Both the position numbers and the translations under genes were made by a program. Under the pieces are notes generated by a model. That model was not told the origin of the DNA. It worked only from the letters and a program-made list of their open reading frames with translations, and made no database searches. A stretch of DNA of 64,000 nt from an uncultured Actinomycetota bacterium (GTDB lineage Bacteria; Actinomycetota; Actinomycetes; Actinomycetales; Dermatophilaceae), in NCBI GenBank assembly GCA_963751385.1, contig CAVVUD010000010.1:54-64053 (forward strand), read 5' to 3'. Positions 2-63,074 of the stretch are shown piece after piece. Numbering within the stretch: the first letter of the stretch is position 1; every line of letters begins with the position of its first letter.

Positions 2-3000
2 ATGAGCCCCTCAGGCGGCCCGCCCTGGGTTCTCACGTCGACCGGTGGCCTGCGTGCTGTCATCGTGGACGGCGGTGCGCCGGCCTCCCTCTCCACGGAC
101 CGGATCGAGCTGGTCCAGCACGCGGCATCGGCCTTCGCCCCCGCACTGCTGCAGCTGTGGCTCCGAGACCGCGCGACCGGGCAGCCCTGGCCCATGCTCG
201 GCGCCGGGTCTGGTTCCTCCGCCCGGGTCGACGACGGTGACCTCGTCGTCACGGGTCAGGCCGACGCCGGCCTCGGGTGGCGCGTGACCCTGCGCCTCGA
301 CGCCGCCCGCACCGCCTGGTCCTGGCACGTGGAGGTGCACAACGACGGACCGGCGACGCGTGACGTGGACGTCGTGCACGCACACGACGTCGCGCTCGCG
401 GCGCCCGGGATGCTGCGCACCAACGAGCTGTACGTGAGCCAGTACCTCGACATCTCGCCTCTGCACGGCGACGGCTTCGGCACGGCTCTCGCGGTGCGGC
501 AGAACCTCGCCCAGGCAGGGTTGACGCCGTGGTGCGTGCTCGCCTGCACGACCCCCGTGGTCGCCTGGGCGACCGACGCACTCGACGTCCACGGCTGGGC
601 GGCGCGCGCCGGACTGCCTCCCGCGGGCCTCGGTGGTGACCTGCCGTCCCGACGACGGCAGCACGAGCACACCCTCGCCACCCTGCAGACGGCGCACTCG
701 CGGCTCGAGGCCGGTGCGCGCCTGGCGACGTCCTTCGCGGGCCTCCTCGTCGGCGACCACCCCGCCGCCACGTCGGACGGCGACGTGCGGCTCGTCCACG
801 AGGCACTGGACCTCGCCCGCGCCGCGGCGTCGACCCTCCCCGCGGCCTCCGCGGCAGCTGGACGCGACCCCGGAGTGGGTCCCCGCGCCGACCGGCGTGT
901 ACGACCCCGGCCGCACCTTGGCCGCCCGGCCGGCGACCGACGCCGAGCTCGAGCGGACCTGGCCCCCTCCGTGGCGCGCGGTGGAGCGCGGGGAGGGTGG
1001 CTCGCTGCTGTCGTTCTTCACCTCGGGCGACGAGCACGTGGTGACCCGGGCCAAGGAGGTCGGCACCCTGCGACCCCACGGCACGATCCTGCGAACAGGT
1101 GCGACGGCGCTTCCCGACCCCGGCTCGCTCACCGTGACGAGCTGGATGACGGGGTCGCCGCTGTCGTACCTGACCCGTGGCCACGCCTCGAACCGACGCC
1201 TGCTCACGACCGTGCGCGGCTACCTGGGTCTGCACCGCGAGTACGGAGTCCGCGTGCTCGTGGAGGTGGCGGACCGGTGGCGGCTGCTGGACCTGCCGTC
1301 CGCGTTCTCGAACACACCGGACGGCGCCCGCTGGATGTACTTCGTCGACCCTGATGGGCCGGATGCCGGTGGCGTCGTGGAGGTCCGGACGACCGCCCCG
1401 CCCACCGAACACGTCCTCCGCCTGTCGGTACAGGTCACGTCCGGTCGGGAACGGCGCGTGATGCTCGCCCTGCACTGCGCGACCGGCGAGGACCCGCTCC
1501 CGGCTCCTCCCGGGGCGGTCACGGTCCGCGAGCGGCCCGACGGCGTCGTCGTGGCCATGCCGGCCGCGACCCTGGCGCTTCGCAGCGCCACCGCCCTCAC
1601 CCTGGGAGACGACGGCCCCCTGTTCGACGACGGCCTCGGCCGCGGCACCTGCACGGTGACGCTGCGCACCGAGCCGCGGCCAGGGGCTCGACGTCGAGCT
1701 CACCGTCGACCCCGAGGTCGACCCAGACGAGGCGAGCTCACCGAGCGCTCGCCCCGAGGGAAGGACGCAGGCGGCAGCCGGACCTGGCCGGCGACTGGTG
1801 GTCGGAGGTCACCGCCCTGCGCGTGGGCTCCGTCCCGCAGGCCGAGCCGCTGGCGGTGAGCCTGCCCTGGCTGGTCCGGGACGCCCTCGTGCACTTCCTC
1901 TCACCGCGCGGCCTCGAGCAGTTCACGGGTGGAGCCTGGGGGACGCGCGACGTGACGCAGGGTCCGCTCGAGCTGTTGCTCGCGCTGGACCGGCAGTCCG
2001 ACGCGCGCGCCCTGCTCCTGCGCATCTTCGCGGCACAGAGTGCAGACGGGACCTGGCCCCAGGCCTTCGGCTTCCTCCCGGGGGACGAGCACTTCCGGAT
2101 GGAGCCGTCGCACGGCGACGTCGTGCACTGGCCCGTCCTCGCCGTCGGCCGGTACCTCCTGGCGTCCGGCGACGCCACCCTGCTCGACGAGAGCGTGCCC
2201 TGGTACACCCCGGCCGACGGGGCGCCGGTACCCGCCTCGACCATGCGCTCCCACGTCGAGCGCGCGCTCGGAGCCGCCAGGGCGCACTTCCTCCCGGGGA
2301 CGACCCTGGTCGCCTACGGCCATGGCGACTGGAACGACTCCCTCCAGCCCGCCGACCCGACCATGGCGGCGACGATGACGAGCGCGTGGACGGTGACGCT
2401 GCACCACCAGTCCCTGCGGACGCTCGCCGACGGGCTGGAGTCCGTGGGTGGCGAGGACGTGCTCGTCGATGCCCTGCGTACCGAGGCCTCGGCCACCGCC
2501 GACGACCTGCGGCGGTACCTGCTCGTGGACGGTGAGCTCGCGGGGTACGCACAGCTCGACCCCCCGGACCGGGACGGCGGGGTCGGGGTGCGCCGGCTGC
2601 TGGTCCACCCCAGGGACGAGGAGACCGGTCTGCGGCACGGCTCGCTGCAGATGATCCACGCCCTCGGCGACGACCTCTTCTCCCGCGACGAGGCCGCCCA
2701 CCACGTCGCGCTGGTCCGCGAGCACCTCATGGGTGTCGACGGCGTGCGGCTGTTCGACCGCCCCCCGCCCTACTCGGGTGGGCTCATGCACCACTTCCAG
2801 CGTGCGGAGACGGCGACGTTCGTCGGTCGGGAGATCGGGCTCATGTACGTCCACGCGCACCTGCGGTGGTGCGAGGCGATGGCGCGCTGGGGCGACGCCG
2901 ACGCCCTGTGGCTGGGGATCATGCAGTCGCTGCCGCCCGCGACGGTCGACGTCGTGCCCGGGGCCCGAGCGCGCCAGGCGAACACGTACCCGTCGAGCTC

Positions 3001-3427
3001 GGACGCGGCCTGCCTGGACCGGGAGGACTTCGCCGCACGGTACGCCGAGGTGCTCACCGGCGCGACGGGCCTCGAGGGCGGCTGGCGGATCTACTCCTCC
3101 GGCCCGGGCGTTCTGCTGCGGATCGTCGTGCACTCGGTGCTCGGGGTCCGCCGCCGCGCCGGGACCGTCGAGATCGACCCCGTCCTGCCGTCCCGGCTGG
3201 ACGGGCTCACGGCCACCGTGCCCCTCGCCGGGGGACTGTTGCGGGTGCGCTACCGCGTCGGCGACCGTGGCCACGGACCGTCCGTCGTCCGTCTCGGCGG
3301 ACGCGACCTGGCGGCGACCACGGGGCCCGCGAACCCCTACCGACCCGGAGGTCTCGTCCTCGACCTCGCCCACCTCGAGGCCGCCCTGCGACCTGACGGT
3401 GACGAGCTCGAGGTGCTCCTGCCGTAG
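2..3427 (+). CDS. GH94-type phosphorylase, probably 1,2-beta-oligoglucan phosphorylase (SOGP-like); split by frameshifts near ~850 and ~1680-1730
   Basis: Three consecutive ORF pieces (2.., 633.., 1823..3427) join into about 1100 aa. Motifs: NELYVSQYLD, HFLSPRGLEQFTGGAWGTRDVTQGPLE, YGHGDWNDSLQP, GREIGLMYVHAHLR, GGWRIYSSGPG. Confidence 0.75.
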
Positions 3428-3495
3428 ACGACCCGACGACCCAGCCCACGAGCACGAGACTCGCGACCGACGACGTCGCAAGGAAGGGACCTGCG

Positions 3496-5349
3496 ATGAC
3501 CGCGCGCACGCCGAACCGCTCACGGATGCTGGCCAGCCCCGATGGCGTGGAGTTCCGTGACCTCAACGGCAACGGCGTGATGGACCCCTACGAGGACCCG
3601 CGCCTCGACCCTCAGGTCCGGGCTGAGGACCTCCTCGGCCGGCTGTCCCTCGCCGAGAAGGTGGGCCTGATGTTCCAGACCGTCATCGAGGCGGGTGTCG
3701 ACGGCTCGCTCATCGAGGAGGCCGGAGAGATCAGCAAGTCGCCGACGAGCGTGGTCGTGCTGGCGAACCACCTGTCGCACTTCAACGTCCACGGCCTGGA
3801 GGACCCGCGGATGGCGGCCCGGTGGAGCAACGCGCTCCAGGCGCTCGCGGAGGGCACGCCGCACGGCATCCCGGTCACGATCTCGTCCGACCCGAGGCAC
3901 TCGTTCATGGAGAACGCCGGTGTCTCCTTCTCGGCCAAGGCGTTCTCGCAGTGGCCCGAACCGCTCGGCCTCGCCGCGCTGCGCGACACCGCTGCCGTGC
4001 GCGAGTTCGCCGACATCGCCCGGCAGGAGTACGTCGCCGTCGGCATCCGGGCCGCCCTGCACCCGACGCTGGACCTCGCGACCGAGCCGCGATGGGGACG
4101 GCAGGCCGGAACCTTCGGCCAGGACCCTGACCTCGTCACCGAGCTGGGGGTGGCCTACCTTCAGGGGTTCCAGGGCGAGTCCCTCGGCGCCGAGAGCGTC
4201 GCGTGCACCTCGAAGCACTTCCCCGGCGGAGGCCCGCAGAAGGACGGCGAGGACGCCCACTTCCCCTACGGGCGCGAACAGGTCTACCCCGGTGGCCGTT
4301 TCGCCGACCACCTCAAGCCGTTCCCCCCGGTCATCGAGGCCGGGACGGCCGCGATCATGCCCTACTACGGGATGCCGGTCGGACTCGAGGTCGACGGCGT
4401 GCCGATCGAGGAGGTCGGCTTCGGCTTCAACGCGCAGGTCGTGACCGGGCTGCTGCGCGAACAGCTCGGCTTCGACGGGGTCGTCGTCACCGACTGGGAG
4501 CTGGTCAACGACAACCACGTCGGCGACCAGGTGCTGCCTGCGCGCGCGTGGGGGGTCGAGCACCTCGACCCGCACGCCCGGATGGAGCGCATCCTCGCAG
4601 CCGGCGCCGACCAGTTCGGAGGTGAGGAGTGCGTCGACGTGCTGCTCGACCTCGTGGCCGAGGGCCGGGTCACCGAGTCACGCATCGACGCCTCGGCGCG
4701 GCGCCTGCTCGCGGTCAAGTTCCGGCTCGGGCTCTTCGACGACCCGTTCGTCGACGAGGACGCCGCCGCCAGCACCGTCGGGCGCGAGGACTTCCGCGCC
4801 GCCGGCTACGAGGCCCAGGCCCGCTCGGTCACCGTGCTCACCAACGGCTCGGATGCCGGCCGCGCCCTGCCGCTGTCCCCCGGCCTGCGGATCTACGCCG
4901 AGAACCTGACCCGCGAGGTGGTGGCGCGACACGGCATCCCGGTGGACCGGCCCGAGGACGCCGACCTGGCCATCGTGCGGTTGATGGCGCCCTACGAACC
5001 GCGCTCGGACCTGTTCCTCGAGTCGTGGTTCCACCAGGGCTCGCTGGACTTCCCCCCGGGCCTGGTGGTGCGGCTGCGACGGATCGCGGCGCAGTGCCGC
5101 CTGGTCGTCGACGTGGTGCTCGACCGGCCGGCGGTGCTGACCCCGATCGTCGGGGTGGCCGACGCCGTCGTCGCCAGCTACGGCACCAGCGACGACGCCC
5201 TGCTCGAGGCGCTCACCGGGCGGATCCCGCCGCGCGGGCGGCTGCCGTTCGACCTGCCCCGCTCGATGGACCAGGTGCGGGCGCACGGCGAGGACGTGCC
5301 GGGCTACGACGACCCGCTCTTCCGCTTCGGCGACGGACTGGTCCTGTGA
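3496..5349 (+). CDS. GH3 beta-glucosidase
   Basis: N-terminal FRDLNGNGVMDPYED, SKHFPGGG, IMPYY, VVTDW nucleophile motif, C-terminal PRGRLPFDLP; RBS GGAAGGGA upstream. Confidence 0.9.
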   Translation: MTARTPNRSRMLASPDGVEFRDLNGNGVMDPYEDPRLDPQVRAEDLLGRLSLAEKVGLMFQTVIEAGVDGSLIEEAGEISKSPTSVVVLANHLSHFNVHGLEDPRMAARWSNALQALAEGTPHGIPVTISSDPRHSFMENAGVSFSAKAFSQWPEPLGLAALRDTAAVREFADIARQEYVAVGIRAALHPTLDLATEPRWGRQAGTFGQDPDLVTELGVAYLQGFQGESLGAESVACTSKHFPGGGPQKDGEDAHFPYGREQVYPGGRFADHLKPFPPVIEAGTAAIMPYYGMPVGLEVDGVPIEEVGFGFNAQVVTGLLREQLGFDGVVVTDWELVNDNHVGDQVLPARAWGVEHLDPHARMERILAAGADQFGGEECVDVLLDLVAEGRVTESRIDASARRLLAVKFRLGLFDDPFVDEDAAASTVGREDFRAAGYEAQARSVTVLTNGSDAGRALPLSPGLRIYAENLTREVVARHGIPVDRPEDADLAIVRLMAPYEPRSDLFLESWFHQGSLDFPPGLVVRLRRIAAQCRLVVDVVLDRPAVLTPIVGVADAVVASYGTSDDALLEALTGRIPPRGRLPFDLPRSMDQVRAHGEDVPGYDDPLFRFGDGLVL

Positions 5350-7147: not shown

Positions 7148-8056
7148 GTGGACGACGTGGGTGAGCAACCGGCCCTCCCGGATGCCGTGCAGCAGGTTCC
7201 GGTGTGCCCGCGGCACCCCGACCGCGAGTCGTACGTGCGCTGCCAGCGGTGCATGCGGCCGACGTGCCCGGAGTGCCAGCGGCCGGCGGCGGTCGGCATC
7301 CAGTGCGTCGACTGCGTGGCCGAGGGCCGCAGGACGGTGCGCCAGGGGCGCACCGTCTTCGGCGGTGCCGTCACCGACGGCCGTCCGGTCGCGACGATGA
7401 CGCTCATCGGGATCTGCCTCGTGGTCTTCGTCGCGCAGCTGACCGTGCCCGGGCTCGACAACCGGATCTCGTTCGTGCCGGCTCTGGCCCAGAGCGAGCC
7501 GTGGCGGTTCCTCACCTCGGCCTTCGCCCACGGCGGCATCACGCACATCGCCTTCAACATGTATGCGCTGTGGGTGATGGGCACCTACCTCGAGCCGATG
7601 CTCGGCCGGGCCCGGTTCGTCGCGATCTACCTGCTCAGCGCCCTCGGTGGCTCGGTCATGTACCTGCTGCTGTCCACGCCGCCGACCGCCGCGGAGACCG
7701 CGACGGGCGACTACGGGATGTGGTGGACCGGCGCGGTAGGTGCCTCGGGCGCGGTGTTCGGCCTGTTCGGGGCGTTCCTCGTGCTCCAGCGCCGGCTCGG
7801 CCGCTCGTCGGCCGGCATGTACGTGATCATCGGCATCAACGCCGTCATCGGGTTCGTGATCCCCGGGATCGCCTGGCAGGCCCACCTCGGCGGTCTGCTC
7901 ACCGGAGCGGCCGTGGCCGCGACCATCGCCTACTCCGGCCGCAACCGGGGGCCGTTCGACCCCCCACCCAGCGGGCGGGTGCACTGGTTCTCGATGGGCG
8001 GCATCCTGTTCGTGCTCGTGCTGCTCACGATCGGCAAGTACGCCCTGGTGGGCTGA
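7148..8056 (+). CDS. Rhomboid intramembrane serine protease with N-terminal zinc-finger (B-box-like) segment
   Basis: CPRHPDRE..C..C..C..C, WRFLTSAFAH, HIAFNM, GASGAVFG, AHLGG. Confidence 0.92.
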   Translation: MDDVGEQPALPDAVQQVPVCPRHPDRESYVRCQRCMRPTCPECQRPAAVGIQCVDCVAEGRRTVRQGRTVFGGAVTDGRPVATMTLIGICLVVFVAQLTVPGLDNRISFVPALAQSEPWRFLTSAFAHGGITHIAFNMYALWVMGTYLEPMLGRARFVAIYLLSALGGSVMYLLLSTPPTAAETATGDYGMWWTGAVGASGAVFGLFGAFLVLQRRLGRSSAGMYVIIGINAVIGFVIPGIAWQAHLGGLLTGAAVAATIAYSGRNRGPFDPPPSGRVHWFSMGGILFVLVLLTIGKYALVG

Positions 8057-9212: not shown

Positions 9213-9895
9213 GAGCGCGCCGCCTCGTCGGCGGGGCCGGAGAGCTGCTCATCACGCTCGGGGTGCTGCTCCTGCTCTTCGCCGCCTGGCAGCTGTGGTG
9301 GACCGACGTGGTCGCCGACCGGGCGCAGGCCCGGATCGTGCAGACCCTCGAGGACGGCTTCGCCCACGGTGAGGCGGCGCCGGTGGGCGCGAACGGCATC
9401 CCGGCGGCGATCGGTACCGACGGTGCGTTCGCGGTGGTGCGGATCCCGCGCTTCGGGGACGACTACGCGCGACCGGTCATCGAGGGCACCGGCCGGCCGG
9501 TGCTGGCCCTGGGGGTGGGCCACTACGTCGGCACGGCGGGCCCTGGGCAGGTGGGCAACTTCGCGGTCGCCGGGCACCGCACGACCTACGGCCGCCCGTT
9601 CCACGACGTCGACCAGCTCGTCGACGGCGACCGGGTGGTCGTCGAGACCGCCGGTGACGTGTACGTCTACGAGGTGACCTCGCGCGAGGTCGTGCGACCG
9701 GGCGACGTCGGGGTCATCGGGCCGGTGCCCGGGGACCCGCAGGGCACGCCCACCGAGGCCCTCCTCACGATGACCTCGTGCCACCCGAAGTACAGCGCCA
9801 CCGAGCGCTTCGTCGTGCACGGCCGGCTCGTGGAGTCGATCCCGCGCGCGCAGTGGGTGCCGTCCGACTGGCTGACCACCGCGACGGAGGGCTGA
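9209..9895 (+). CDS. Class E sortase
   Basis: GELLITLG N-terminal anchor, GNFAVAGHRTTYG, LTMTSCHP, ERFVVH; GTGA overlap with the DUF881 gene. Confidence 0.9.
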   Translation: MRARRLVGGAGELLITLGVLLLLFAAWQLWWTDVVADRAQARIVQTLEDGFAHGEAAPVGANGIPAAIGTDGAFAVVRIPRFGDDYARPVIEGTGRPVLALGVGHYVGTAGPGQVGNFAVAGHRTTYGRPFHDVDQLVDGDRVVVETAGDVYVYEVTSREVVRPGDVGVIGPVPGDPQGTPTEALLTMTSCHPKYSATERFVVHGRLVESIPRAQWVPSDWLTTATEG

Positions 9896-9899: not shown

Positions 9900-10058
9900 G
9901 TGTATGCCGCCCTGTGGCGCTCCCTGCCCGGCCCCCGGTGGGCCAAGGCCGTGCAGTGCCTCGTGCTGGGGGTGCTCGTCGTCGGCGTCTGCTTCACCTG
10001 GGTGTTCCCGGCGGTCAGCCCGCTGCTGCCGTTCACGGACTCGACCGTCGGTCCCTGA
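9900..10058 (+). CDS. Small conserved membrane protein (52 aa, absent from the ORF track)
   Basis: MYAALWRSLPGPRWAKAVQCLVLGVLVVGVCFTWVFPAVSPLLPFTDSTVGP; fills the sortase-trpG gap as in other actinobacteria. Confidence 0.75.
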   Translation: MYAALWRSLPGPRWAKAVQCLVLGVLVVGVCFTWVFPAVSPLLPFTDSTVGP

Positions 10059-10082: not shown

Positions 10083-10739
10083 ATGACCCGCATCCTCGTC
10101 GTCGACAACTACGACAGCTTCGTCTTCACGATCGTCGGTTACCTCGAGCAGCTCGGCGCCGAGTGCGAGGTCGTGCGCAACGACGCGCTCGCCCCGGCCG
10201 ACGGGGCCGACTTCGACGGCGTGCTGGTCTCGCCCGGCCCGGGTACGCCCGAGGAGGCCGGTGTCTCGATGGCGATGATCGAGGCCTGCGGCGAGCGGGA
10301 GCAGCCGATGCTCGGTGTCTGCCTGGGGCACCAGGCCCTCGCAGTGGTACTGGGCGCCACCGTCGGCCGGGCGCCCGAGCTGCTGCACGGCAAGACCTCC
10401 CAGGTGCACCACGACGGCACCGGGGTGCTGGAGGGCGCCCCCGACCCGTTCACCGCCACGCGCTACCACTCGCTGACCATCGAGCCCGCCACGCTGCCCG
10501 ACGAGCTGCTCGCCAACGGCCGCACCGAGAGCGGCATCATCATGGCCGTGCGGCACGCGACCCTTCCGCTGCACGGCGTGCAGTTCCACCCCGAGTCGGT
10601 GCTGACCCACGGCGGCCACCGGATGCTCGCCAACTGGCTGCAGCTGTGCGGGATGCCGGATGCCGTCGCCCGCTCGGCGGGCCTGAGTCCGCTCGTGCAC
10701 GACGCCGCCGGCGTCGCCCGGATGGTCGCCGCCGGCTGA
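10083..10739 (+). CDS. trpG: Aminodeoxychorismate/anthranilate synthase component II (glutamine amidotransferase)
   Basis: VDNYDSF, SPGPG, GVCLGHQ, RYHSL, GVQFHPES. Confidence 0.93.
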   Translation: MTRILVVDNYDSFVFTIVGYLEQLGAECEVVRNDALAPADGADFDGVLVSPGPGTPEEAGVSMAMIEACGEREQPMLGVCLGHQALAVVLGATVGRAPELLHGKTSQVHHDGTGVLEGAPDPFTATRYHSLTIEPATLPDELLANGRTESGIIMAVRHATLPLHGVQFHPESVLTHGGHRMLANWLQLCGMPDAVARSAGLSPLVHDAAGVARMVAAG

Positions 10740-10836
10740 CCGGCATCCGGGCACCATCCGGGGCAACAGCGAGCAGTGGGACGTGGCCCCGGAACCCACG
10801 CACCTGAATCGACCCACAGGTCGACGTTGCCCCAGA

Positions 10837-17058: not shown

Positions 17059-17061
17059 CCG

Positions 17062-23602: not shown

Positions 23603-23646
23603 TCGACTCCGGGCTCCGGGGACCGCCGACATCAGAAAGGGATGCC

Positions 23647-31023: not shown

Positions 31024-31027
31024 GTCG

Positions 31028-47784: not shown

Positions 47785-47864
47785 CCGCCCATCGTCGCAG
47801 GCCGGCCCCGCAGAAGCCGCGCGGCATGGATACTGAGCAGGCACCAGATCGCCGGGGAGGACCG

Positions 47865-48648: not shown

Positions 48649-49800
48649 ATGCCGCGACCCCATGCCGCAGCAGTGCTCGAAGACGCCTACAACGGGCGCA
48701 AGGGCAAGGTGCTGCGGTCTCGCGGGTGGACCACCCGCGTCGTCCCCCTCACCGGCTACGGCAGCGTCAGCCAGCTGCGCGTGTTCGGTCGCGTCATCAT
48801 GACCCGCGGTCGGCCGGAGGACGAGCCCGACGAGCCCACGTACGCCGCGCGGCTGCGGGCGGTCGAGCTCGAGACCCGTGGCTGGCGAGCCTTCTTCGCG
48901 ACTCCGGCGGTCGACGAGCCGGTCACCGTGCGGGTCAACGAGCGCATCGTCACCACGCGCACCGACCGCGGCGGCTACATCGACCTCACCGTGCGCGGCC
49001 ACGGGCTCGCCCCCGGGTGGCACCAGATCTACGTCGGCTCACCCGGCGCCGAGACGATCGACGTGCCGGTGCTCGTCGTCGGCACCACGGTCACGCACGG
49101 CATCATCTCCGACATCGACGACACGGTGCTGTCCACGTCGCTGCCTCGCCCGATGATCGCCGCGTGGAACACCTTCATGCGCTCGGAGGGTGCCCGCAAG
49201 CCGGTGCCGGGCATGGCCACGATGTACCGCGAGCTGCTCGCCGAGCACCCCGACGCCCCGGTCATCTACCTCTCGACCGGCGCCTGGAACACCGCGCCAC
49301 AGCTCACGAGGTTCCTGCGCCGCAACGGTTATCCGGCCGGGCCGATGCTGATGACCGACTGGGGTCCGACCAACACCGGTTGGTTCCGGTCGGGGCAGGA
49401 CCACAAGCGCGCGCAGCTGCACCGGCTGGCCCGCGAGCTGCCGCACGTGAAGTGGCTGCTCGTCGGCGACGACGGGCAGCACGACCCGAAGATCTACACC
49501 GAGTTCACCGGCCGTCGCCCGGACAACGTGCGCGGCATCGCGATCCGTGAGCTCTCCCCGAGCGAGCAGGTGCTCTCGCACGTCATCCCGGTCGCGAACG
49601 ACGACCTGGCGCCGGCACCGACCGAGGAGCTCGAGGTGCCGGTCGTGCGGGCCAGCGACGGCTACGGCTTGCTCCGCCAGGTGCGGATGGTGTGGGACGC
49701 CGACGTGCCCAGCCGCACGCTCGCGGCGCGCGCCGCGGGGACGGTACCGCCGCTGGAGCACCCACCGGCATACCTCCTGCCGGACCCCCACGAGCGGTAG
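48649..49800 (+). CDS. App1 family (DUF2183) phosphatidate phosphatase
   Basis: ISDIDDTV, YLSTGAWN, TDWGP, LVGDDGQHD. Confidence 0.88.
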   Translation: MPRPHAAAVLEDAYNGRKGKVLRSRGWTTRVVPLTGYGSVSQLRVFGRVIMTRGRPEDEPDEPTYAARLRAVELETRGWRAFFATPAVDEPVTVRVNERIVTTRTDRGGYIDLTVRGHGLAPGWHQIYVGSPGAETIDVPVLVVGTTVTHGIISDIDDTVLSTSLPRPMIAAWNTFMRSEGARKPVPGMATMYRELLAEHPDAPVIYLSTGAWNTAPQLTRFLRRNGYPAGPMLMTDWGPTNTGWFRSGQDHKRAQLHRLARELPHVKWLLVGDDGQHDPKIYTEFTGRRPDNVRGIAIRELSPSEQVLSHVIPVANDDLAPAPTEELEVPVVRASDGYGLLRQVRMVWDADVPSRTLAARAAGTVPPLEHPPAYLLPDPHER

Positions 49801-49809: not shown

Positions 49810-50670
49810 ATGCCCGAGCTGCCCGAGGTGCAGGCCCTCGTCCACTTCCTCGGCGAGCGTACCGACGGGCTCGTCGTCACCGGTGTCGAGCTCGGCTCGA
49901 TCTCGGTGCTCAAGACCTTCACGCCGCCGCCGCAGGCCTTGGTCGGCGCGCCGGTCGACGGCGTTTCGCGGTACGGCAAGTTCATCGACATCGACTGCGG
50001 CGGAACGCACCTGGTGTTCCACCTGGCGCGCGCGGGCTGGCTGCGGTGGTCCGACGCGATGCCGGCCACCGTGCTGCGCCCGGGCAAGTCGCCCATCGCG
50101 TTGCGGGTGCGCTTCGACGACGCGTCGGGCTTCGACCTCACCGAGGCCGGCACCAAGAAGCGGCTCGCGGCGTACGTCGTCAACGACCCGTCGACCGTGC
50201 CCGGCATCGCCTCGCTGGGGCCCGACCCGATGGCCGACGAGTTCACCCTCGAGGTGTTCGCGGCGATCGCGGCCTCGCACCGGATGCAGGTCAAGGGGAT
50301 GCTGCGCGACCAGTCGATCATCGCCGGCGTCGGCAACGCCTACTCCGACGAGGTGCTGCACGTGGCCAAGCTGTCGCCGTTCGCGATCGCCGCCAAGCTG
50401 GGCGACGCCGAGGTCGAGCGGCTCTACGTCGCGCTGCGGGGCACGTTGGCCGCTGCGGTCACCGCGGCATCCGGGAAGCCGGCCAAGGAGCTCAAGGACG
50501 CCAAGCGCGCCGGCATGCGCGTGCACGGACGCACCGGCGAGACGTGTCCCGAGTGCGGAGACGTGGTGCGCGAGGTGTCGTTCGCCGACTCGTCGCTGCA
50601 GTACTGCGCCACCTGCCAGACCGGCGGCAAGCCGCTCGCCGACCGCAGGACGAGCAAGTTCCTGAAGTAG
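49810..50670 (+). CDS. Fpg/Nei family DNA glycosylase
   Basis: MPELPEV, GVGNAYSDE, C-terminal zinc finger. Confidence 0.92.
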   Translation: MPELPEVQALVHFLGERTDGLVVTGVELGSISVLKTFTPPPQALVGAPVDGVSRYGKFIDIDCGGTHLVFHLARAGWLRWSDAMPATVLRPGKSPIALRVRFDDASGFDLTEAGTKKRLAAYVVNDPSTVPGIASLGPDPMADEFTLEVFAAIAASHRMQVKGMLRDQSIIAGVGNAYSDEVLHVAKLSPFAIAAKLGDAEVERLYVALRGTLAAAVTAASGKPAKELKDAKRAGMRVHGRTGETCPECGDVVREVSFADSSLQYCATCQTGGKPLADRRTSKFLK

Positions 50671-51256: not shown

Positions 51257-51355
51257 GGCCCAAACCTACTGGCGCGGCATCCCGGGCACGACACGGCCTA
51301 CTGCTGTATCCGCATGTATGCCGTGAACGCTAGAGAGGCCGTATAGCCTCCGATC

Positions 51356-52554
51356 GTGGACCCGATCCGGAACCCCTACGCCCCGGGCGCGGGCCAGCGC
51401 CCGCCCGAGCTCGCCGGCCGCGACGACCAGCTGGACGCGTTCGACGTCGTGCTGGAGCGGGTGGCCCGCGGCAGGCCCGAGCGCTCGATCGTGCTGACGG
51501 GGCTGCGCGGCGTCGGCAAGACCGTGCTGCTCAACGCGCTGCGGTCGGCGGCGGTGCGCGCCGGCTGGGGCACCGGCAAGCTCGAGGCCCGGCCCGACCA
51601 GTCGCTGCGCCGGCCGCTCGCTGCGGCCTGCACAACGCGGTGCGCGAGCTCGGGCCGGCCGGCGGTGCGGGCGACTCCGTGCTCGGCATGGTCAAGGCGT
51701 TCGCGCTGCGCGCCGGCAGGTGCCGGCCGAGGTCCGCAAGCTGCGCGACCGCTGGAACCCGGGGATCAACGTGCCGGCCATGACCGGTCGGGCGGACTCC
51801 GGCGACATCGAGATCGATCTCGTCGAGCTGCTCTCCGACCTCGGTGGCGCTGCGGCCGACGCCGGTCGTGGCGTCGCCATGTTCATCGACGAGATGCAGG
51901 ATCTCGTGCCCGACGACGTGTCCGCGCTGTGCGCCGCCTGCCACGAGATCTCGCAGTCGGGGCTGCCGATCATCGTCGTCGGTGCCGGGCTGCCTCACCT
52001 GCCGGCCGTGCTCTCGGCGTCGAAGTCGTACTCGGAGCGGCTGTTTCGGTACTCCCGCATCGACCGGCTCGACCGCGCGGCCGCCGATGTCGCGCTCGCC
52101 GTGCCCGCCGGGGACGAGGGCGCGGACTTCGCCCGCGCCGCGCTCGACGCGATGTACGCGGCCACCGGCGGCTACCCCTACTTCATCCAGGCGTACGGCA
52201 AGGTGGTCTGGGACCTGGCCCCGGCATCCCCCATGACCGCCGACGACGTGGCCGTGGCGGCGCCGGAGGCGGAGTCCGAGCTGGCCGTCGGGCTTCTTCG
52301 GCTCGCGCTTCGAGCGGGCCACGCCGGGGAGCGCGAGTACCTGCGCGCGATGGCCGACGTCGCGGTCGAGGCTGGGCGACGAGACGGATGCCGTGCCCAC
52401 CGCTGACGTCGCGGCCCACCTCGCGCGCAAGCCGCAGTCGCTGTCCCCGGCGCGTGACGCCCTGCTCAAGAAGGGGCTGATCTACTCCGGTGAGCGCGGT
52501 CGGATCGCGTTCACCGTGCCGCACTTCGGCCGCTACCTGCGCGAGCACGCCTGA
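51356..52554 (+). CDS. AAA+ ATP-binding protein (conserved actinobacterial); about 3 frameshifts
   Basis: NPYAPGAG, GLRGVGKT, FIDEMQ, SYSERLF, GGYPYFIQ, FTVPHFG. Confidence 0.85.
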
Positions 52555-52670: not shown

Positions 52671-54023
<1,353 letters not shown>

Positions 54024-55304: not shown

Positions 55305-57545
55305 TCACCCACTCGTGAGGACGACGAGCCGCTGGGTGGCGCGCGTCATCGCCACGTAGCGGTCGACGGCCCCGGTGATGCCGTCGCCGAACTCCTGCGG
55401 GTCGACGAGCACGACGAGGTCGAACTCGAGCCCCTTGGCGAACGCCGGGGGCAGAGAGCTGACCCGCTCGGTCGCCCGGAGGCTCGGGTCACCGATGACG
55501 CACGCGATGCCCTCCGGGTGCGCCGCCAGCCAGTCGTCGAGGACGGCGTCGCGCTCGGAGACCGCGCCGTGGTGCACCACCTCGGCGGTGCGCCGGATCG
55601 AGGTCGGCACGTTCGCGTCCGGCAGCACCGCGCGGATCACGGGCTCGGCCTCGAGCATGACCGCCTCCGGCGTGCGGTAGTTGACGTCGAGCGTGGCCAG
55701 CGCGAGCCGGTCGAGCCCGACCCGCGCGAGGCGCTCCTGCCAGGTCTCGGTGAACCCGTGCCTGGCCTGGGCCCGGTCCCCGACGATCGTCAGGCTGCGC
55801 GACGGGCATCGGGCCAGCAGCATCCGCCACTCGGCGTCGGTCAGCTCCTGCGCCTCGTCGACGACGACGTGCGCGAACGGCCCGGCGAGCCGGTCGGCGT
55901 CGGTGCCCGGCACGGCATCCTCGTCGACCAGCGCCGCCGTCAGGTCCTGGCCGCGCAGCATCGACATCACCCGCATCTCGGAGTCGTCGGTCGCGATGAG
56001 GTCGGCGACGACGTCGGCCATCCGTTCGCGGTCGGCAGCGTCGGCGGCCTGCCGCCGGGCCCGGCGACGCGACGCCGCGGGGTCGCCCAGGCGGCGCCGC
56101 GCCGCGTCGAGCAGCGGCAGGTCCGACACGGTCCAGGCGCTCGCGTCCTCGCGCTGCAGCGCCAGCACCTCCTCGCGCTCGAGCCAGGGCGCGCACCGTC
56201 GCAGGTAGGCCGGCACCGACCACAGGTCGCCGACGAGGTCGGTCGGCTCGAGCAGGGGCCACGCCCGGCCGAAGGCGTCCGCCAGGTCCTCGTTCGCGAC
56301 GAGCGCACGGCGGAAGCGCTCGTCGGGGTCCGGCGCGGTCAGGCCGTAGGCGTCGAAGTCGTCGCCGGCACCGTCTGCGCCCCACCCGGGGCCCACCTCC
56401 TCGCCCTCGGCTTCGCCCGTCTCGTCCCGCAGCTTGTCCACGAGGATGCCGAGCAGCGCCTCCCAGACGGTGTCACGGCTCTCGTTGTGCGCGGCGCCGG
56501 GCTCCGGGCTGTCGAAGGCCTCAGCCCAGTCGGTGGGGCCGAGCCATACGTCACCCCAGGGCGTCTCGACCTCCATGCCCTGCTCCGGTGGCTCCTCGTA
56601 GAGGCCCACGGCCGGCTCGACGGCGTCGACCAGGCGTGCGTCGGCCTTGAGCCGGGCCACCTCCGGGTCGGGTTCGTCGGCAGCGGTGGCACCCTCCGGC
56701 ACGAGGTCGCGCAGGGTGCAGGTCTGCACGCCCTCCTCGCCGAGGCTGGGCAGCACGTCGGAGACGTAGGCGAGGTAGGGCTGGTGCGGGCCGACGAAGA
56801 GCACGCCGCCCATCCGGTGCCCGAGGCGCGGGTCGGAGTACAGCAGGTAGGCGGTGCGGTGCAGGGCCACGACGGTCTTGCCCGTGCCGGGCCCGCCCTC
56901 GACCACGAGCGCCCCCCTCGACCCGGCCCGGATGATCGCGTCCTGGTCGGCCTGGATCGTGGCGAGCACGTCGCGCATCCGGGGTGATCTGCTGCTGCCG
57001 AGGCTGGCGATGAAGGCGGACTGGTCGTCGAGCGCGGCCGCGTGCCCGGTGAACGCGTCGGGTGTGAACACCTCGTCCCAGTAGTCGCTGACCCGACCGC
57101 CGGCCCAGCGGTAGCGCCGGCGGCTCACCAGGCCCATCGGGTTGGCATGGGTCGCACCGAAGAACGGCTCGGCCGCGGGTGAGCGCCAGTCGACGAGCAG
57201 CGGCCTGCCGTCGCGGTCCCGGAGCCCGAGGCGTCCGACGTACACCGGCTCGGGGTCGTCGGCGTGCACGACGTGTCCGAGGCAGAGGTCGAGCCCGTAG
57301 CGACGCAGCGTGCGCAGGCGCGCGGTCAGCCGGTGCACCTCGAGGTCACGGTCGAGGGCAGCCTGCCCGGTGCCGGCGGGAGTCCGCCGGGCCGCGTCGA
57401 GGCGGTCGGACAGGTCGGCGACCGACGACCGCAGGCAGTGCTCGATCGCGGCGAAGTGCCGCTCGTCCCCGGCGAGCAGCATCGGGTCGGCCTTGGGGGC
57501 CAGGTGCTCGGGAAGGTCGAACGCACTCGTGGTGGAGGGGTTCAC
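55305..57545 (-). CDS. helR: RNA polymerase recycling ATPase HelR (rifamycin resistance)
   Basis: SAFDLPEHLAPKADP N-terminus, DWRSPAA, GGPGTGKT, DEAQE, GDRAQ, KGLEFD, YVAMTRAT; RAE upstream. Confidence 0.9.
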   Translation of the reverse strand: MNPSTTSAFDLPEHLAPKADPMLLAGDERHFAAIEHCLRSSVADLSDRLDAARRTPAGTGQAALDRDLEVHRLTARLRTLRRYGLDLCLGHVVHADDPEPVYVGRLGLRDRDGRPLLVDWRSPAAEPFFGATHANPMGLVSRRRYRWAGGRVSDYWDEVFTPDAFTGHAAALDDQSAFIASLGSSRSPRMRDVLATIQADQDAIIRAGSRGALVVEGGPGTGKTVVALHRTAYLLYSDPRLGHRMGGVLFVGPHQPYLAYVSDVLPSLGEEGVQTCTLRDLVPEGATAADEPDPEVARLKADARLVDAVEPAVGLYEEPPEQGMEVETPWGDVWLGPTDWAEAFDSPEPGAAHNESRDTVWEALLGILVDKLRDETGEAEGEEVGPGWGADGAGDDFDAYGLTAPDPDERFRRALVANEDLADAFGRAWPLLEPTDLVGDLWSVPAYLRRCAPWLEREEVLALQREDASAWTVSDLPLLDAARRRLGDPAASRRRARRQAADAADRERMADVVADLIATDDSEMRVMSMLRGQDLTAALVDEDAVPGTDADRLAGPFAHVVVDEAQELTDAEWRMLLARCPSRSLTIVGDRAQARHGFTETWQERLARVGLDRLALATLDVNYRTPEAVMLEAEPVIRAVLPDANVPTSIRRTAEVVHHGAVSERDAVLDDWLAAHPEGIACVIGDPSLRATERVSSLPPAFAKGLEFDLVVLVDPQEFGDGITGAVDRYVAMTRATQRLVVLTSG

Positions 57546-57860: not shown

Positions 57861-60242
<2,382 letters not shown>

Positions 60243-60469
60243 CGCGTCTCTCCCTGTTGTCGGGCGGATGCCGTCGTGCGGCCTCCGCCGGCATCCGCGG
60301 CCCGCCCAGACTAGGCGGGACCACCCACGACGCGCTTCTCGGTTCCTGACTGCTGCCGAGCGAGTCTGGCCCGCGGTGCCGACGCGCGCGCCTCGACCAC
60401 CCGCTTCATCCCCCAGCATTCCCGGCGGTGCCCACGATGCGGGCAGGGCAGGACGCACGGCATCCACTA

Positions 60470-61141: not shown

Positions 61142-61680
61142 GGTCGCGGGAGGCGGTGCACGACGACGTCGTGCACCGCACCCTCGCTCAGGACGCACGT
61201 CATCCAGGTGCAGCTCGGCTGCTGACGGCGGTCGGTGGGTGATCCCGGGTTGAGGAGCCTCAGACCGGAACAGGTTGTGTCCCAGGGGATGTGGCTGTGC
61301 CCGAAGACGAGCAGATCCGTGTCGGGGTAGGTGGCGCGCATCCGCTCCCCGCGGCGTTCCTTCCCCCCGGTCTCGTGCACCACGGCCACCCGCACCCCGC
61401 CGACGGTCGCGCGCGCGACCTCCGGCAGCCGGGCGCGCAGGTCGGCGCCGTCGTTGTTGCCCCAGCAGGCCAGCAACCGGCGACTGCGGGCCTCGAGCCG
61501 GTCGAGCGTGGCGAGGTCGACCCAGTCGCCGGCGTGCACCACGAGATCGGCGCGGTCGACCTCCTCCCACAGGGCGGCAGGGAGGTCCTTGGCGCGCAGC
61601 GGCAGGTGCGTGTCCGACATCAACAGCGTCCGGATGCCGTCGCCCGCCGCCCCCATGACCCCTCCGCCCACCGTGGTCAC
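61111..61680 (-). CDS. YfcE-like metallophosphoesterase
   Basis: SDTH, HAGD, GNND, FGHSH, NPGSPTDRR. Confidence 0.9.
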   Translation of the reverse strand: MTTVGGGVMGAAGDGIRTLLMSDTHLPLRAKDLPAALWEEVDRADLVVHAGDWVDLATLDRLEARSRRLLACWGNNDGADLRARLPEVARATVGGVRVAVVHETGGKERRGERMRATYPDTDLLVFGHSHIPWDTTCSGLRLLNPGSPTDRRQQPSCTWMTCVLSEGAVHDVVVHRLPRPQAGASAKRR

Positions 61681-61829
61681 CCCACGGTGCGCCGGGCGGT
61701 GGTGAGCCGGGTGAAGCGGCTCGCGGCGAGGGCGAACGTGAAGGTGGGCGCCGGCATGCGGTCAACCTACGGGCCCTGAGACGCGTGGTGTCGACCGTGG
61801 TCGGAGATGCTTCCCGGACCGGCGAGCCG

Positions 61830-63074
61830 TCAGAGGTGCAGCGCCGCTCGACGAGCCTCGAGGTACCGGCGCTCGGGCGTCTCGTGGGTCAGGGCGAGGG
61901 CGCGCTCGTAGGCCAGGGCCGCCTCGGCGTCGCGGCCGAGCCGAGAGAGCAGCTCGGCGCGGGTCGCCCAGGCGGGCTGGAACCGCACGGTGCGACCGGC
62001 ATCCGCGTCGAGCAGTGCCAGCCCGGAGGCCGGACCCTCCACCTCGGCGGTGACGGCCGCCAGCGCCGTGGTGCTGCCCAGGCTGGGGGCGACGACGGCC
62101 AGCGACCGGTGCAGCTCGAGCAGGGTCGGCCAGTCGGTGCGCCCGGTCTCGCGCCGCGCGCAGTGCACCGCCTGCACCGCCGCCTCGAGCTGGTAGCGGC
62201 CGACGACCCGGGCCGGGTGCGCAGCCCGAAGGTGCTCGTGGGCCCGGACGATGAGGCCGTCGTCCCAGAGCGTGGTGTCCTGCGAGGCGAGGGGGACGAA
62301 CCGGCCGTCCGCGCCCAGCCGGGCCGCTCGACGGGCGGCCGACAGCTCGACGAGGGCGGCCAGGCCGTGCACCTCCGGATCGTCGGGCACCAGCTCGGCG
62401 AGCACCTCGGCCAGGTGCAGCGCCTCGGGCGGGAGGTCGCGCTCGCCAGGCCCGGTCGACCACTCGATGACGTAGGCCGCGTACACGGCGGCGAGCACGG
62501 CATCCATCCGCTCGGGCAGGTGCGAGCGGTCGGGGAGCCGGAACGGGATCTGGTTGTCGCGGATGCGGCGCTTGGCGCGCACCAGCCGGGTCGCCATCGT
62601 GCGGGTGGGCACGGCGTAGCTGCGCCCGACCTGCTCTGCGGTGAAGCCGAGCACGGTGTTGAGCATGAGCGGCGTGCGGTCGCCGGCCGCGATGGCTGGG
62701 TGGGCGCAGACCAGCATCAGCTCGAGCCGTCGGTCGGGCACGGCATCGGGGTCGACCTCGTCGAGGTGGACCGGCGCGTGGGCGTCGGGGTCCAGCGCTG
62801 TGGTGCGGGTCGCCTCCGCCGAGCGCCAGCGGTCGCGTTGCCGGTTGCGAGCGACGGTGAGCAGCCAGGCGTCCGGGCGGTCGGGGATGCCGTCGACCGG
62901 CCAGGTGCGCAGGGCGCGTTCGAAGGCGTCAGCCAGGGCATCCTCGGCGCCGGCGATGTCGTGGGTGCCCGCCGCGAGGAGGGCGAGCAGCCGGCCGTAG
63001 CTGGTGCGGGCCGCGAGCTCGGCCCGCACCAGCGCAGCGCGGCCATGGGGTGCCGCCTCGAGCGGCTCGGTCAC
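61830..63074 (-). CDS. ECF sigma factor with TPR-like C-terminal extension (DUF6596-type)
   Basis: AEDALADAF..AL..WP, AWLLTVARN, LMLVCAHP, RLVRAKRRI, GRYQLEAA. Confidence 0.88.
   Translation of the reverse strand: MTEPLEAAPHGRAALVRAELAARTSYGRLLALLAAGTHDIAGAEDALADAFERALRTWPVDGIPDRPDAWLLTVARNRQRDRWRSAEATRTTALDPDAHAPVHLDEVDPDAVPDRRLELMLVCAHPAIAAGDRTPLMLNTVLGFTAEQVGRSYAVPTRTMATRLVRAKRRIRDNQIPFRLPDRSHLPERMDAVLAAVYAAYVIEWSTGPGERDLPPEALHLAEVLAELVPDDPEVHGLAALVELSAARRAARLGADGRFVPLASQDTTLWDDGLIVRAHEHLRAAHPARVVGRYQLEAAVQAVHCARRETGRTDWPTLLELHRSLAVVAPSLGSTTALAAVTAEVEGPASGLALLDADAGRTVRFQPAWATRAELLSRLGRDAEAALAYERALALTHETPERRYLEARRAALHL

Follow-up and report, generated by a model that had tools for sequence, protein, structure and literature searches.

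The octamer GGATGCCG, a local variant of GKATGCCG, a proposed self-DNA word of the family

Why does one 8-base word, GGATGCCG, recur about once per kilobase along this DNA, and what could maintain it there? The preliminary description had estimated about 60 copies (about 28 on the plus and 34 on the minus strand) between positions 1361 and 62892 of the window, the whole 64,000-nt stretch that was analysed, with 5–6 expected at a GC content of about 73%. These estimates proved close: an exact search returned 62 copies (28 on +, 34 on −), the first starting at 1361 and the last ending at 62892, dinucleotide-preserving shuffles of the window gave 5.1 ± 2.3 (maximum 12), and the GC content is 72.7%. 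Reading frames at the copies were assigned by a six-frame codon HMM built for this analysis, which placed 19 as G-GAT-GCC-G, 18 as C-GGC-ATC-C, 7 as GG-ATG-CCG, 6 as CG-GCA-TCC and 2 as CGG-CAT-CC, with 10 in non-coding DNA. The HMM agrees with the earlier assignments at all five GCA-TCC, both CGG-CAT-CC and all five intergenic sites, and at 15 of the 16 GAT-GCC sites; the site at 7180 falls in a short segment on the opposite strand. The copies are listed below with those of the twin word GTATGCCG, which is named where it occurs; every other line is a copy of GGATGCCG.

1361..1368 (+), G-GAT-GCC-G with the rare Asp codon GAT; first copy of the window
3864..3871 (−), C-GGC-ATC-C, encoding Gly-Ile
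4041..4048 (−), C-GGC-ATC-C
4370..4377 (+), GG-ATG-CCG, encoding Met-Pro
4851..4858 (+), G-GAT-GCC-G
4932..4939 (−), C-GGC-ATC-C
7180..7187 (+), C-GGC-ATC-C by the HMM, in a short minus-strand segment; previously GAT-GCC
7294..7301 (−), C-GGC-ATC-C
7999..8006 (−), C-GGC-ATC-C
9394..9401 (−), C-GGC-ATC-C
9902..9909 (+), twin word GTATGCCG, G-TAT-GCC-G with the rare Tyr codon TAT
10651..10658 (+), GG-ATG-CCG; overlaps the copy at 10658 by one base
10658..10665 (+), G-GAT-GCC-G
10741..10748 (−), non-coding
17053..17060 (−), GG-ATG-CCG
17919..17926 (+), CGG-CAT-CC with the rare His codon CAT
18073..18080 (−), G-GAT-GCC-G
19270..19277 (−), CGG-CAT-CC
19649..19656 (+), non-coding
20770..20777 (+), GG-ATG-CCG
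20837..20844 (+), G-GAT-GCC-G
21275..21282 (−), CG-GCA-TCC with the rare Ala codon GCA
21381..21388 (+), G-GAT-GCC-G
22637..22644 (+), C-GGC-ATC-C
23447..23454 (−), non-coding
23640..23647 (+), non-coding
24591..24598 (−), G-GAT-GCC-G
25245..25252 (−), C-GGC-ATC-C
25736..25743 (−), twin word GTATGCCG, G-TAT-GCC-G
26657..26664 (+), C-GGC-ATC-C
26729..26736 (−), G-GAT-GCC-G
28196..28203 (−), G-GAT-GCC-G
28688..28695 (−), G-GAT-GCC-G
29040..29047 (+), GG-ATG-CCG
30043..30050 (+), C-GGC-ATC-C
30964..30971 (−), GG-ATG-CCG
31291..31298 (+), non-coding; inverted pair with 31318, left arm
31318..31325 (−), non-coding; inverted pair with 31291, right arm
34846..34853 (+), CG-GCA-TCC; in 3 of 8 aligned same-genus genomes
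35037..35044 (−), G-GAT-GCC-G; in 3 of 8 aligned same-genus genomes
35067..35074 (−), G-GAT-GCC-G; in 4 of 8 aligned same-genus genomes
37280..37287 (−), G-GAT-GCC-G; in 8 of 10 aligned same-genus genomes
39761..39768 (−), C-GGC-ATC-C; in 11 of 11 aligned same-genus genomes
39944..39951 (−), C-GGC-ATC-C; common to 4 of 11 relatives, with GGATGTCG in the other 7
41039..41046 (−), CG-GCA-TCC; inverted pair with 41049; otherwise only in G139
41049..41056 (+), G-GAT-GCC-G; in 4 of 11 relatives
42440..42447 (+), C-GGC-ATC-C; in 6 of 10 aligned same-genus genomes
43431..43438 (+), C-GGC-ATC-C
44700..44707 (+), twin word GTATGCCG, non-coding
47040..47047 (−), twin word GTATGCCG, G-TAT-GCC-G
47779..47786 (−), GG-ATG-CCG
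49766..49773 (−), twin word GTATGCCG, CG-GCA-TAC
50465..50472 (−), CG-GCA-TCC
51275..51282 (−), non-coding
51316..51323 (+), twin word GTATGCCG, non-coding
52222..52229 (−), CG-GCA-TCC
52386..52393 (+), G-GAT-GCC-G
53078..53085 (+), G-GAT-GCC-G
55913..55920 (−), G-GAT-GCC-G
56444..56451 (+), C-GGC-ATC-C
58770..58777 (+), CG-GCA-TCC
60266..60273 (+), non-coding; inverted pair with 60289, left arm
60289..60296 (−), non-coding; inverted pair with 60266, right arm
60458..60465 (−), non-coding
61632..61639 (+), C-GGC-ATC-C
61997..62004 (−), G-GAT-GCC-G
62498..62505 (−), G-GAT-GCC-G
62885..62892 (+), C-GGC-ATC-C; last copy of the window

The over-representation is confirmed across the genome, which holds 3293 copies (0.93 per kb, with a copy roughly every 2.1 kb on either strand), 7.5–10.8 times as many as Markov models of order 0–3 predict; once poly-A filler runs are set aside, no other 8-mer is as over-represented. 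Stretches poor in the word are accessory DNA of lower GC content, a transposase among its content. We found no published description of the word in the literature. The simplest explanation would be a by-product of coding, in which frequent Gly-Ile, Asp-Ala and Met-Pro dipeptides combine with GC-rich codon usage. Indeed, C-GGC-ATC-C, made of preferred codons, accounts for 1058 copies, and a maximal-order Markov model predicts 2901 of the 3293, although it does so because the 7-mers within the word are themselves enriched. The preliminary description had proposed comparing the counts with coding-preserving shuffles, and GAT use inside the motif with that outside it, and the finding survived both. 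In sense orientation, GGATGCCG occurs 1328 times and CGGCATCC 1506 times, against 128–189 and 569–718 in genome-wide shuffles that preserve codons and dinucleotides (an excess of 2–10 fold), and Asp is written GAT at 67.2% of G-GAy-GCC-G sites (957/1424), compared to 4.0% genome-wide; its share in well-populated neighbouring contexts is at most 12.7%, reaching 20% where there are fewer than 130 sites. Non-coding DNA carries 409 copies against 26–48 expected (9–15 fold), at a density above that of coding DNA (1.33 versus 0.89 per kb), and other families of similar GC content reach only about twice their reversed-word control. The GAT share, the shuffles and the non-coding enrichment refute a coding by-product, to which we now give practically no credence.

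At synonymous third positions, all eight positions of the word are shifted toward its own base, by +1.6 to +3.6 ln-odds where the baseline is not already saturated, and in both orientations relative to transcription. The full 8-base word is actively maintained, in genes and spacers alike, against codon preference, and the evidence supports the view that the octamer is a DNA-level, lineage-specific signal. Single sites turn over between species while density stays constant. Of 70 sites compared between G000 and G139 (85.5% nucleotide identity), 39 are shared and 31 are found in G000 only; 33 are found in G139 only, so that gains equal losses, and copies of the word are conserved at 56% as against 34% for the average 8-mer. 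Enrichment in GGATGCCG extends to each of the 14 other genomes sampled from the genus. The arrangement of copies suggests that the word is read with direction, yet without replichore polarity. Neighbouring copies lie on opposite strands in 56.7% of cases (p = 2e-14), and same-strand gaps below 750 nt occur at 0.81–0.88 of the Poisson expectation and those of 1–3 kb at 1.1–1.3. Among the 3293 copies, 82 inverted and 38 direct pairs lie within 30 nt, where 91 are expected in total. Orientation is close to 50:50 in every contiguous stretch of 100–200 kb (nine genomes) and uncorrelated with GC skew (rho 0.09), which bears out the earlier observation that strand polarity is absent, from which a KOPS- or Chi-type signal had been argued against.

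The word is not confined to this genus. In many genera of the family the top word is GTATGCCG, which differs from GGATGCCG by one letter at position 2 and reaches 17–36 times expectation; it exceeds its reversed control 5–40 fold (mostly more than 10 fold) in about 40 of the 73 sampled genera. We refer to carriers of GGATGCCG as GG genomes and to carriers of GTATGCCG as GT genomes. GGATGCCG is dominant only in genera g1, g24, g28 and g46; G010 carries both words, and in G000 GTATGCCG still stands at 7–11 times expectation alongside GGATGCCG. On a ComEC tree the GG genomes fall into two clades, each nested among GT lineages, and enforcing a single GG clade costs 285 lnL units (AU p = 1.4e-9), on one gene and with the GG group defined after the tree was seen. 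Among the sister genera, enrichment is faint in g10 and g49 and does not rise above background in g65. Within the order, a second family is enriched as well. We note that the GKATGCCG pair, the strand alternation and the occurrence outside the genus go beyond the preliminary description.

No candidate for a reader of the word emerged from this analysis. One possibility, which we consider unlikely, is a Chi-like role, in which a translocating helicase-nuclease (AdnAB or another enzyme) would switch from degradation to recombination at the word, on two-ended double-strand breaks or incoming linear DNA, where both orientations would be needed to flank breaks. With Chi sites the word shares its asymmetry, its length of 8 bases and its lineage specificity; it has dialects and is sparse in accessory islands, and its orientation-dependent spacing and strand alternation fit a reader travelling along one strand. 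However, every characterised Chi is, to our knowledge, strongly co-oriented with replication (Escherichia coli, Lactococcus lactis, Staphylococcus aureus), at odds with the even orientation seen here, and as far as we know the known Chi octamers fall below this word in density and fold-enrichment. A search for RecC (RecBCD) gave no match in any of the eight GG genomes, and matches in only 13 of the roughly 73 genomes that carry the word. Somewhat less probable again, in our judgement, is that an abundant protein of chromosome organisation or repair binds or loads at the copies, with each copy weakly selected for its function in the resident chromosome and no role in DNA exchange. The constraint on the whole word, the presence of copies in both genes and spacers, the same-strand spacing that is evener than random and the raised conservation of copies are all consistent with this; the 44% of sites that differ between species, the balance of gains and losses and the lack of the word in close genera (g65, and G093 of g10) are not. 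We know of no nucleoid protein with such specificity, and our search yielded no candidate gene.

The preliminary description had also offered a methylation-driven motif, and this branch of its uptake, recombination or methylation reading fared poorly, although its DNA-level, lineage-specific signal stood. Here a methyltransferase would mark the word and mismatch-specific repair would convert near-matches into it, a drive that has been proposed for HIP1. The word does contain the type IIS sites GGATG and GCATC, its patchy occurrence and switch of specificity are typical of restriction-modification systems, and there are weak Eco57I-type and patchy PF02384 matches. Against this, C5 and N4/N6 methyltransferases (PF00145, PF01555) were not found in the five word-rich genomes searched (G000, G008, G035, G039 and G057, four of them at least 90% complete), PF02384 is missing from G039 and G000, and Vsr (PF03852) occurs in about 29% of the genomes that carry the word and 28% of those that lack it (121 genomes) and in only one of eight GG genomes, so that neither Vsr nor any of these DNA methyltransferases tracks the word. 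The presumed source word, GGACGCCG, shows no depletion (1.3 times expectation), and 2785 frameshift-like assembly errors show no clustering at the word. The drive acts on all eight positions irrespective of the base, and not on a single C/T position; deamination of one base or very-short-patch repair would not yield such a pattern, and a one-base hotspot is likewise not supported. The embedded restriction sites, put forward earlier, explain nothing since the word is enriched instead of avoided. We regard a modification drive as quite improbable.

The explanation we prefer, tentatively and at rather less than even chances, is that the word serves as a strand-read tag of self DNA and has spread because DNA carrying it is preferentially taken up or recombined. 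The word has a likeness to the uptake tags of Neisseria (DUS) and Haemophilus/Pasteurellaceae (USS) and, as first proposed, its density and distortion of codon use match those of DUS, USS and HIP1; DUS and USS are family-wide, whereas GKATGCCG is patchy and about a third of the sampled genera lack it. A sequence-specific reader would recognise the word on a single strand at a time, and word-bearing homologous DNA would be preferentially taken up, or spared and recombined, with the consequence that word-bearing alleles would replace word-less ones, a molecular drive of the kind already proposed for DUS and USS. Additional same-strand copies nearby would contribute little, which could produce the strand alternation and same-strand spacing. 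Two observations sit less easily with such a tag: an uptake receptor for double-stranded DNA would not by itself explain same-strand avoidance, which would need a single-strand or direction-aware step, and close inverted pairs, the hallmark of intergenic DUS/USS terminators, are few (the 82 given above). Of 121 genomes, 118 have ComEC and 120 a Tad/T4P-type ATPase, and ComEA and DprA are present in all five tested; as ComEC, ComEA, DprA and the pilus ATPase are equally present in word-free genera, these genes lend no phylogenetic support. We know of no report of natural competence for the family. In another actinobacterium, Micrococcus luteus, natural transformation is described as dependent on a Tad/Flp pilus (PMC4322843).

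With a self-DNA tag, the dialects would reflect a switch in the preference of the reader at position 2 (T to G), from GTATGCCG genomes to the GGATGCCG genomes of this lineage, and where the reader is lost the word would decay, as may have happened in those sister genera where enrichment is faint or lacking. A published parallel exists in the DUS dialects, which track phylogeny and limit interspecies transformation (PMC3630211). On this reading, GGATGCCG would be the form that a self-DNA word shared across the family, GKATGCCG, takes in this lineage.

By exact search the octamer GGATGCCG (hereafter the GG word; reverse complement CGGCATCC) occurs 62 times in the window, 28 times on the forward and 34 times on the reverse strand, where dinucleotide-preserving shuffles give 5.1 ± 2.3 copies with a maximum of 12. 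The preliminary description had counted about 60 copies by hand with the same division between strands and had put the GC content at about 73%; both figures stand. The window lies at C10:54-64053 in the assembly of the source genome, G000 (14 contigs, 3.54 Mb, 72.7% GC), which contains 3293 copies, 1707 in forward and 1586 in reverse orientation (0.93 per kb). This exceeds the predictions of Markov models of order 0, 1, 2 and 3 by factors of 10.8, 10.4, 9.8 and 7.5, respectively. The 2901 copies predicted by a maximal-order Markov model are owed solely to the enrichment of the 7-mers nested in the word. The GG word is the most over-represented 8-mer of the assembly once a few poly-A/T filler runs are excluded. 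These alternating poly-A/poly-T runs of up to 329 bases (G000 C7:291081-291972 and C14:655722-655960) dominate naive k-mer rankings; set in DNA of 73% GC, they resemble filler from assembly or masking, not biology.

The assembly is rich in indels: genes are cut into pieces of 60-300 codons (for example at window positions 29424-31255 on the reverse strand and 31512-34552 on the forward strand), ComEC is broken over three frames at C11:120105-120688, and the indels probably explain the 68% completeness figure. The 2785 same-strand frame switches without a nearby stop (about one per 1.3 kb) lie no nearer to the word than random positions do, which rules out a link with sequencing error and gives no hint of a modification-linked base-calling artefact. 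Because of the many frame breaks, coding frames were labelled by a six-frame codon HMM, which called 91% of the genome coding.

Genome-wide copies of the word by HMM frame (hyphens mark codon boundaries)
Frame C-GGC-ATC-C: 1058 copies
Frame G-GAT-GCC-G: 958 copies
Non-coding: 409 copies
Frame CG-GCA-TCC: 406 copies
Frame GG-ATG-CCG: 339 copies
Other frames: 81 copies
Across a segment edge: 42 copies

The word is denser in non-coding than in coding DNA (1.33 against 0.89 copies per kb), and the 409 non-coding copies compare with 26-48 expected. Inside genes we compared its counts with three shuffles, of synonymous codons within segments, of third bases at constant amino acids, codon usage and dinucleotides, and of codon order. 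The excess survives all of them, with 1328 sense copies of GGATGCCG against 81-189 and 1506 of CGGCATCC against 323-718. The suspicion that GAT is specifically raised in the G-GAT-GCC-G context also proved right: GAT makes up 67.2% of Asp codons (957/1424) within G-GAy-GCC-G and 4.0% of Asp codons overall, so that about 35% of the genome's GAT codons (957/2715) fall within the word. The shuffles, the non-coding enrichment and the use of GAT in context together exclude a codon or dipeptide artefact. At synonymous third positions where the other seven bases match the word, all eight positions are pulled to the word's base, by +1.6 to +3.6 ln-odds where the baseline is unsaturated, in both orientations relative to the gene. 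Since every position is shifted, the whole word is driven and not a single hypermutable base; with GGACGCCG not depleted either, a one-base mutational hotspot or deamination sink is ruled out. In non-coding DNA the word is preceded by C (position -1, 67%) and followed by T or G (+8) and then G (+9), with no signal beyond, and such nearly information-free flanks are not those of a REP/MITE-type dispersed repeat or mobile element. Copies lie in frame inside conserved genes, and one or two point changes mostly separate them from the orthologous sites. The distortion that the word imposes on codon statistics needs to be allowed for in gene finding and in codon-based indices of expression.

Along the chromosome, the orientation of the word is unrelated to GC skew (rho 0.09) or to gene strand, and it is about 50:50 within nine contiguous stretches of 100-200 kb from other genomes, single-contig chromosomes included; the preliminary description was therefore correct in seeing no strand polarity of the KOPS or Chi type. 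Counts in 10-kb bins approximate a Poisson distribution (mean 9.3, variance 11.3), and two neighbouring copies are on opposite strands in 56.7% of cases (p = 2e-14). Relative to the exponential expectation, same-strand gaps below 750 nt are depleted (0.81-0.88) and those of 1-3 kb enriched (1.1-1.3). Within 1 kb, opposite-strand neighbours outnumber same-strand ones by 1.33 to 1. There are 120 pairs of copies within 30 nt of each other, where 91 would be expected, 82 of them inverted and 38 direct; such close pairs take in only about 5% of copies, and hairpin pairs are a small minority. The window has three inverted pairs:

31291/31318, inverted word pair
41039/41049, inverted word pair
60266/60289, inverted word pair

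The word-poorest windows have lower GC and accessory genes. A Mutator-family transposase lies in the most word-poor, lower-GC 10-kb stretch of the genome (L252:10255-11139, corresponding to G000 C13:222255-223139), which fits recently acquired DNA without the word. Word density is a practical marker of long-resident as against recently acquired DNA.

Three genes of the window have DNA-handling products, and we see no tie between them and the word:

55314-57602, reverse strand: UvrD-like helicase with a long N-terminal region without family match
57864-60248, reverse strand: UvrA-like double ABC protein
25470-28247, reverse strand: DUF3516 DEAD-box helicase

A helicase encoded in the window has its closest named relatives in Nostocoides species and in a metagenome-assembled genome of Actinomycetales. 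Within the genus of G000, all of the first 12 genomes sampled carry the GG word at 0.7-1.3 copies per kb, about 8-20 times the control, the reversed word. Among 120 genomes from 73 genera of the family, strong enrichment is restricted to four genera (g1, g24, g28 and g46), and five others are intermediate (g10, g49, g20, g21 and g12). A k-mer ranking of 100-200 kb samples from 13 genomes outside the GG genera and g10 returned a one-letter variant, CGGCATAC (= GTATGCCG, the GT word), as the top word in seven, at 17-36 times expectation. Counted over the family, the GT word reaches about 900-5400 copies per genome in about 40 of the 73 genera (5-40 times control, mostly above 10) and is at background in about 25; the GG word is the dominant form in four genera of this family, whose main word is the GT word. 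One genome of the source genus, G010, has both words (2611 GG and 1410 GT copies), and G000 itself retains 220 copies of GTATGCCG, 7-11 times expectation. In G023 the dialect is a relaxed form, GTATGNCG, with 348 copies in 200 kb (L125-L134, G023:C1:100001-300000), all four bases at position 6 (5' to 3') being enriched 11-25 fold. At the level of the order, the word is seen only in this family and in one other, f7, where five of six sampled genomes are 7-22 fold over control and the remaining one 3.9 fold; the other 22 families are near twice the control.

In the same k-mer ranking the top words of G028, G030 and G054 are mild (5-6 fold), and G036, G060 and G132 have no such word. We note that the top words of the word-free genomes G054 (L166-L170) and G030 (L186-L190), CGGCGTAC and CGGCGTCC at about five times expectation, differ from the GT and GG words in having G in place of A, and may represent decayed relics or simply Gly-Val codons. 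Word-free G132 (L176-L180, G132:C1:500001-600000) has AAGACCTA at 21 and CAACTACG at 20 copies per 100 kb, 83 and 40 times expectation, perhaps a dispersed element or word of another kind. G000 contains a second dispersed non-coding element with core GACCAATAGGTC and short inverted ends GACC...GGTC (ACCTATTG, 80 copies, and ACCAATAG, 73, each against about one expected); it may represent the site of a regulator or a family of small repeats.

In a tree of ComEC from 40 genomes, built from BLAST-checked ORFs, the genomes with a dominant GG word fall into two clades, each nested among GT lineages. One holds g1, g24, the faint g10 and g49, and word-free g65; the other holds g46 and g28 and adjoins a GT genome, G082. 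Constraining the GG genomes to a single clade lowers the log-likelihood by 285 units (AU p = 1.4e-9), a figure that comes from one gene, which may itself move between lineages, and from a GG group named after the tree had been seen. Taken at face value, the tree would make the GT word ancestral and imply two or more origins or acquisitions of the GG word, with a fading of the word where its drive is lost. Individual sites turn over. Between G000 and G139 (85.5% nucleotide identity over 73.7 kb aligned), 39 of 70 word sites are common (56%), against 34% of all 8-mers and 36% of the 200 words of highest frequency; G000 alone has 31 of the sites, and G139 alone has 33. The ten window sites that align to at least two relatives range from one kept in 11/11 to one common with a single relative.

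Viral contigs chosen by an inverted word pair carry a modest and doubtful excess of the word, with 0.26 extra copies per kb or 4.7 times control (20 loci of at least 66% GC), a sample biased by that choice and with hosts unassigned; the best of them has no cultured relative with a named host. In Tetrasphaera phage TJE1 (NC_019930, L376; 57.7% GC) neither word exceeds control. Its top word is a palindrome, CCTCGAGG, with an XhoI site within (20 copies against 3.4 expected).

HIP1 (GCGATCGC) of cyanobacteria is, like the word, a hyper-abundant, codon-distorting and lineage-specific octamer. Its mechanism is still debated; Elhai is said to have described it in 2015 as palindromic and tied to cognate methyltransferases. 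The word is asymmetric: GGATGCCG is not its own reverse complement, and palindromic ends (CGG...CCG) appear only in the 9-mer CGGATGCCG, so a palindrome of the HIP1 type is excluded. In five word-rich genomes (G000, G008, G035, G039 and G057) we found no conserved methyltransferase: C5 (PF00145) and N4/N6 (PF01555) enzymes gave no match, and the type I/IIG family (PF02384) is patchy, missing in G039 and G000. Eco57I-type enzymes (PF07669) match weakly in word-bearing and word-free genomes alike. Vsr (PF03852) is unlinked to enrichment: over 121 genomes its frequency is about 29% where the word is present and 28% where it is not, and one of the eight GG genomes has it. The methylation-driven origin entertained in the preliminary description finds no support; very-short-patch repair or methylation would call for a cognate C5 methyltransferase, a Vsr-type endonuclease and one driven C/T position, against no PF00145 in the five genomes, an unlinked Vsr and eight driven positions, and we regard any drive by modification and repair as very unlikely. 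The proposed correlation with competence genes does not discriminate. ComEC (PF03772) is present in 118/121 genomes, the Tad/T4P ATPase (PF00437, T2SSE) in 120/121, and DprA with ComEA in 5/5 genomes checked; as all four occur with and without the word, their phylogenetic profile is uninformative.

Chi, the signal of RecBCD/AddAB, resembles the word in being short, asymmetric, lineage-specific and over-represented, and in an apparently direction-aware reading. The word differs from it in its higher density and fold-enrichment and in the lack of co-orientation with replication, the leading-strand skew of Chi being absent here. The eight GG genomes searched gave no match to RecC (PF04257), which rules out RecBCD as the reader in them. 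Over the family survey RecC occurs in 23 of about 48 word-free and 13 of about 73 word-bearing genomes; this negative association may reflect phylogeny alone. A signal of the Chi type, acting in end processing but lacking replichore polarity, is unlikely. That the copies are binding sites of a chromosomal protein seems quite unlikely; KOPS or another architecture-imparting skewed octamer can be set aside, as there is no strong strand skew flipping at origin or terminus.

The closest parallels are the uptake sequences of Neisseriaceae (DUS) and Pasteurellaceae (USS), and the preliminary comparison with these and with HIP1 in density and codon distortion holds at the measured 0.93 copies per kb and 67.2% GAT in context. 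Such systems are marked by preferential binding, uptake and transformation of the DNA that carries the sequence and by frequent inverted pairs that serve as terminators; in Neisseria, the minor pilin ComP is a dedicated sequence-specific receptor. Like DUS and USS, the word is short and present in thousands of copies at about one per kb, equally in both orientations and far over the expectation from composition and codons; it lies in genes and spacers, is imposed on codons and peptides, is denser in non-coding and sparse in accessory DNA, and is accompanied by competence genes. It also has one-letter dialects by lineage, as described for the DUS of Neisseriaceae (Frye et al. 2013, PMC3630211), the GT, GG and GTATGNCG forms following genera and the lineages of the ComEC tree. 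It differs in its eight bases with weak flanks (C before, T or G after), in seemingly having few inverted-pair terminators, in its lack from about one-third of the family's genera, in the alternation of neighbouring copies between strands with avoidance among same-strand copies, and in its host phylum, Actinomycetota.

The word is maintained, varies by dialect and is laid out non-randomly as to strand. We infer that it acts via uptake or recombination. The pull on the whole word, the equal strands, the alternation with same-strand repulsion, the turnover at constant density, the sparsity in accessory DNA, the dialects and the decay in sister lineages are mostly common to DUS and USS, and on that basis we tentatively suggest that the word may be a self-DNA tag, read on one strand, that biases uptake or recombination. 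With such a reader, an incoming fragment would be tagged on either strand only if both orientations lay nearby. Natural transformation dependent on a Tad/Flp pilus is reported for another actinobacterium, Micrococcus luteus (PMC4322843). More speculatively, the word could belong to the first DNA-uptake or self-recognition system of Actinomycetota, in which a strand-specific reader of GKATGCCG would bias uptake or recombination, its T/G position toggling by lineage and so hindering recombination across genera in two families of the order.

The literature, searched by exact word and by topic, yielded neither a description of the word nor a report of an uptake sequence in Actinomycetota. New here are GGATGCCG as the dominant dialect inside a GT family, in two clades of the ComEC tree; the faint and lost states in sister genera, which are contrasts for finding the reader; and the per-position synonymous-site measure together with the negative Vsr, methyltransferase, RecC and competence-gene profiles. 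To our knowledge, genome-wide self words are confined to a few groups, namely DUS, USS, Chi and HIP1, and each of these opened a view on how bacteria discriminate self from foreign DNA. The word would be a further one, present in a large family of actinobacteria and in another family of its order. The natural contrasts (GT genera, GG genera, one two-word genome and word-free close relatives) make its reader findable by comparative genomics and pull-downs. If the word does bias uptake or recombination, the dialect switch would be a ready-made test of the origin of bacterial sexual isolation, and the word itself would offer a handle for transforming hard-to-engineer Actinomycetota.
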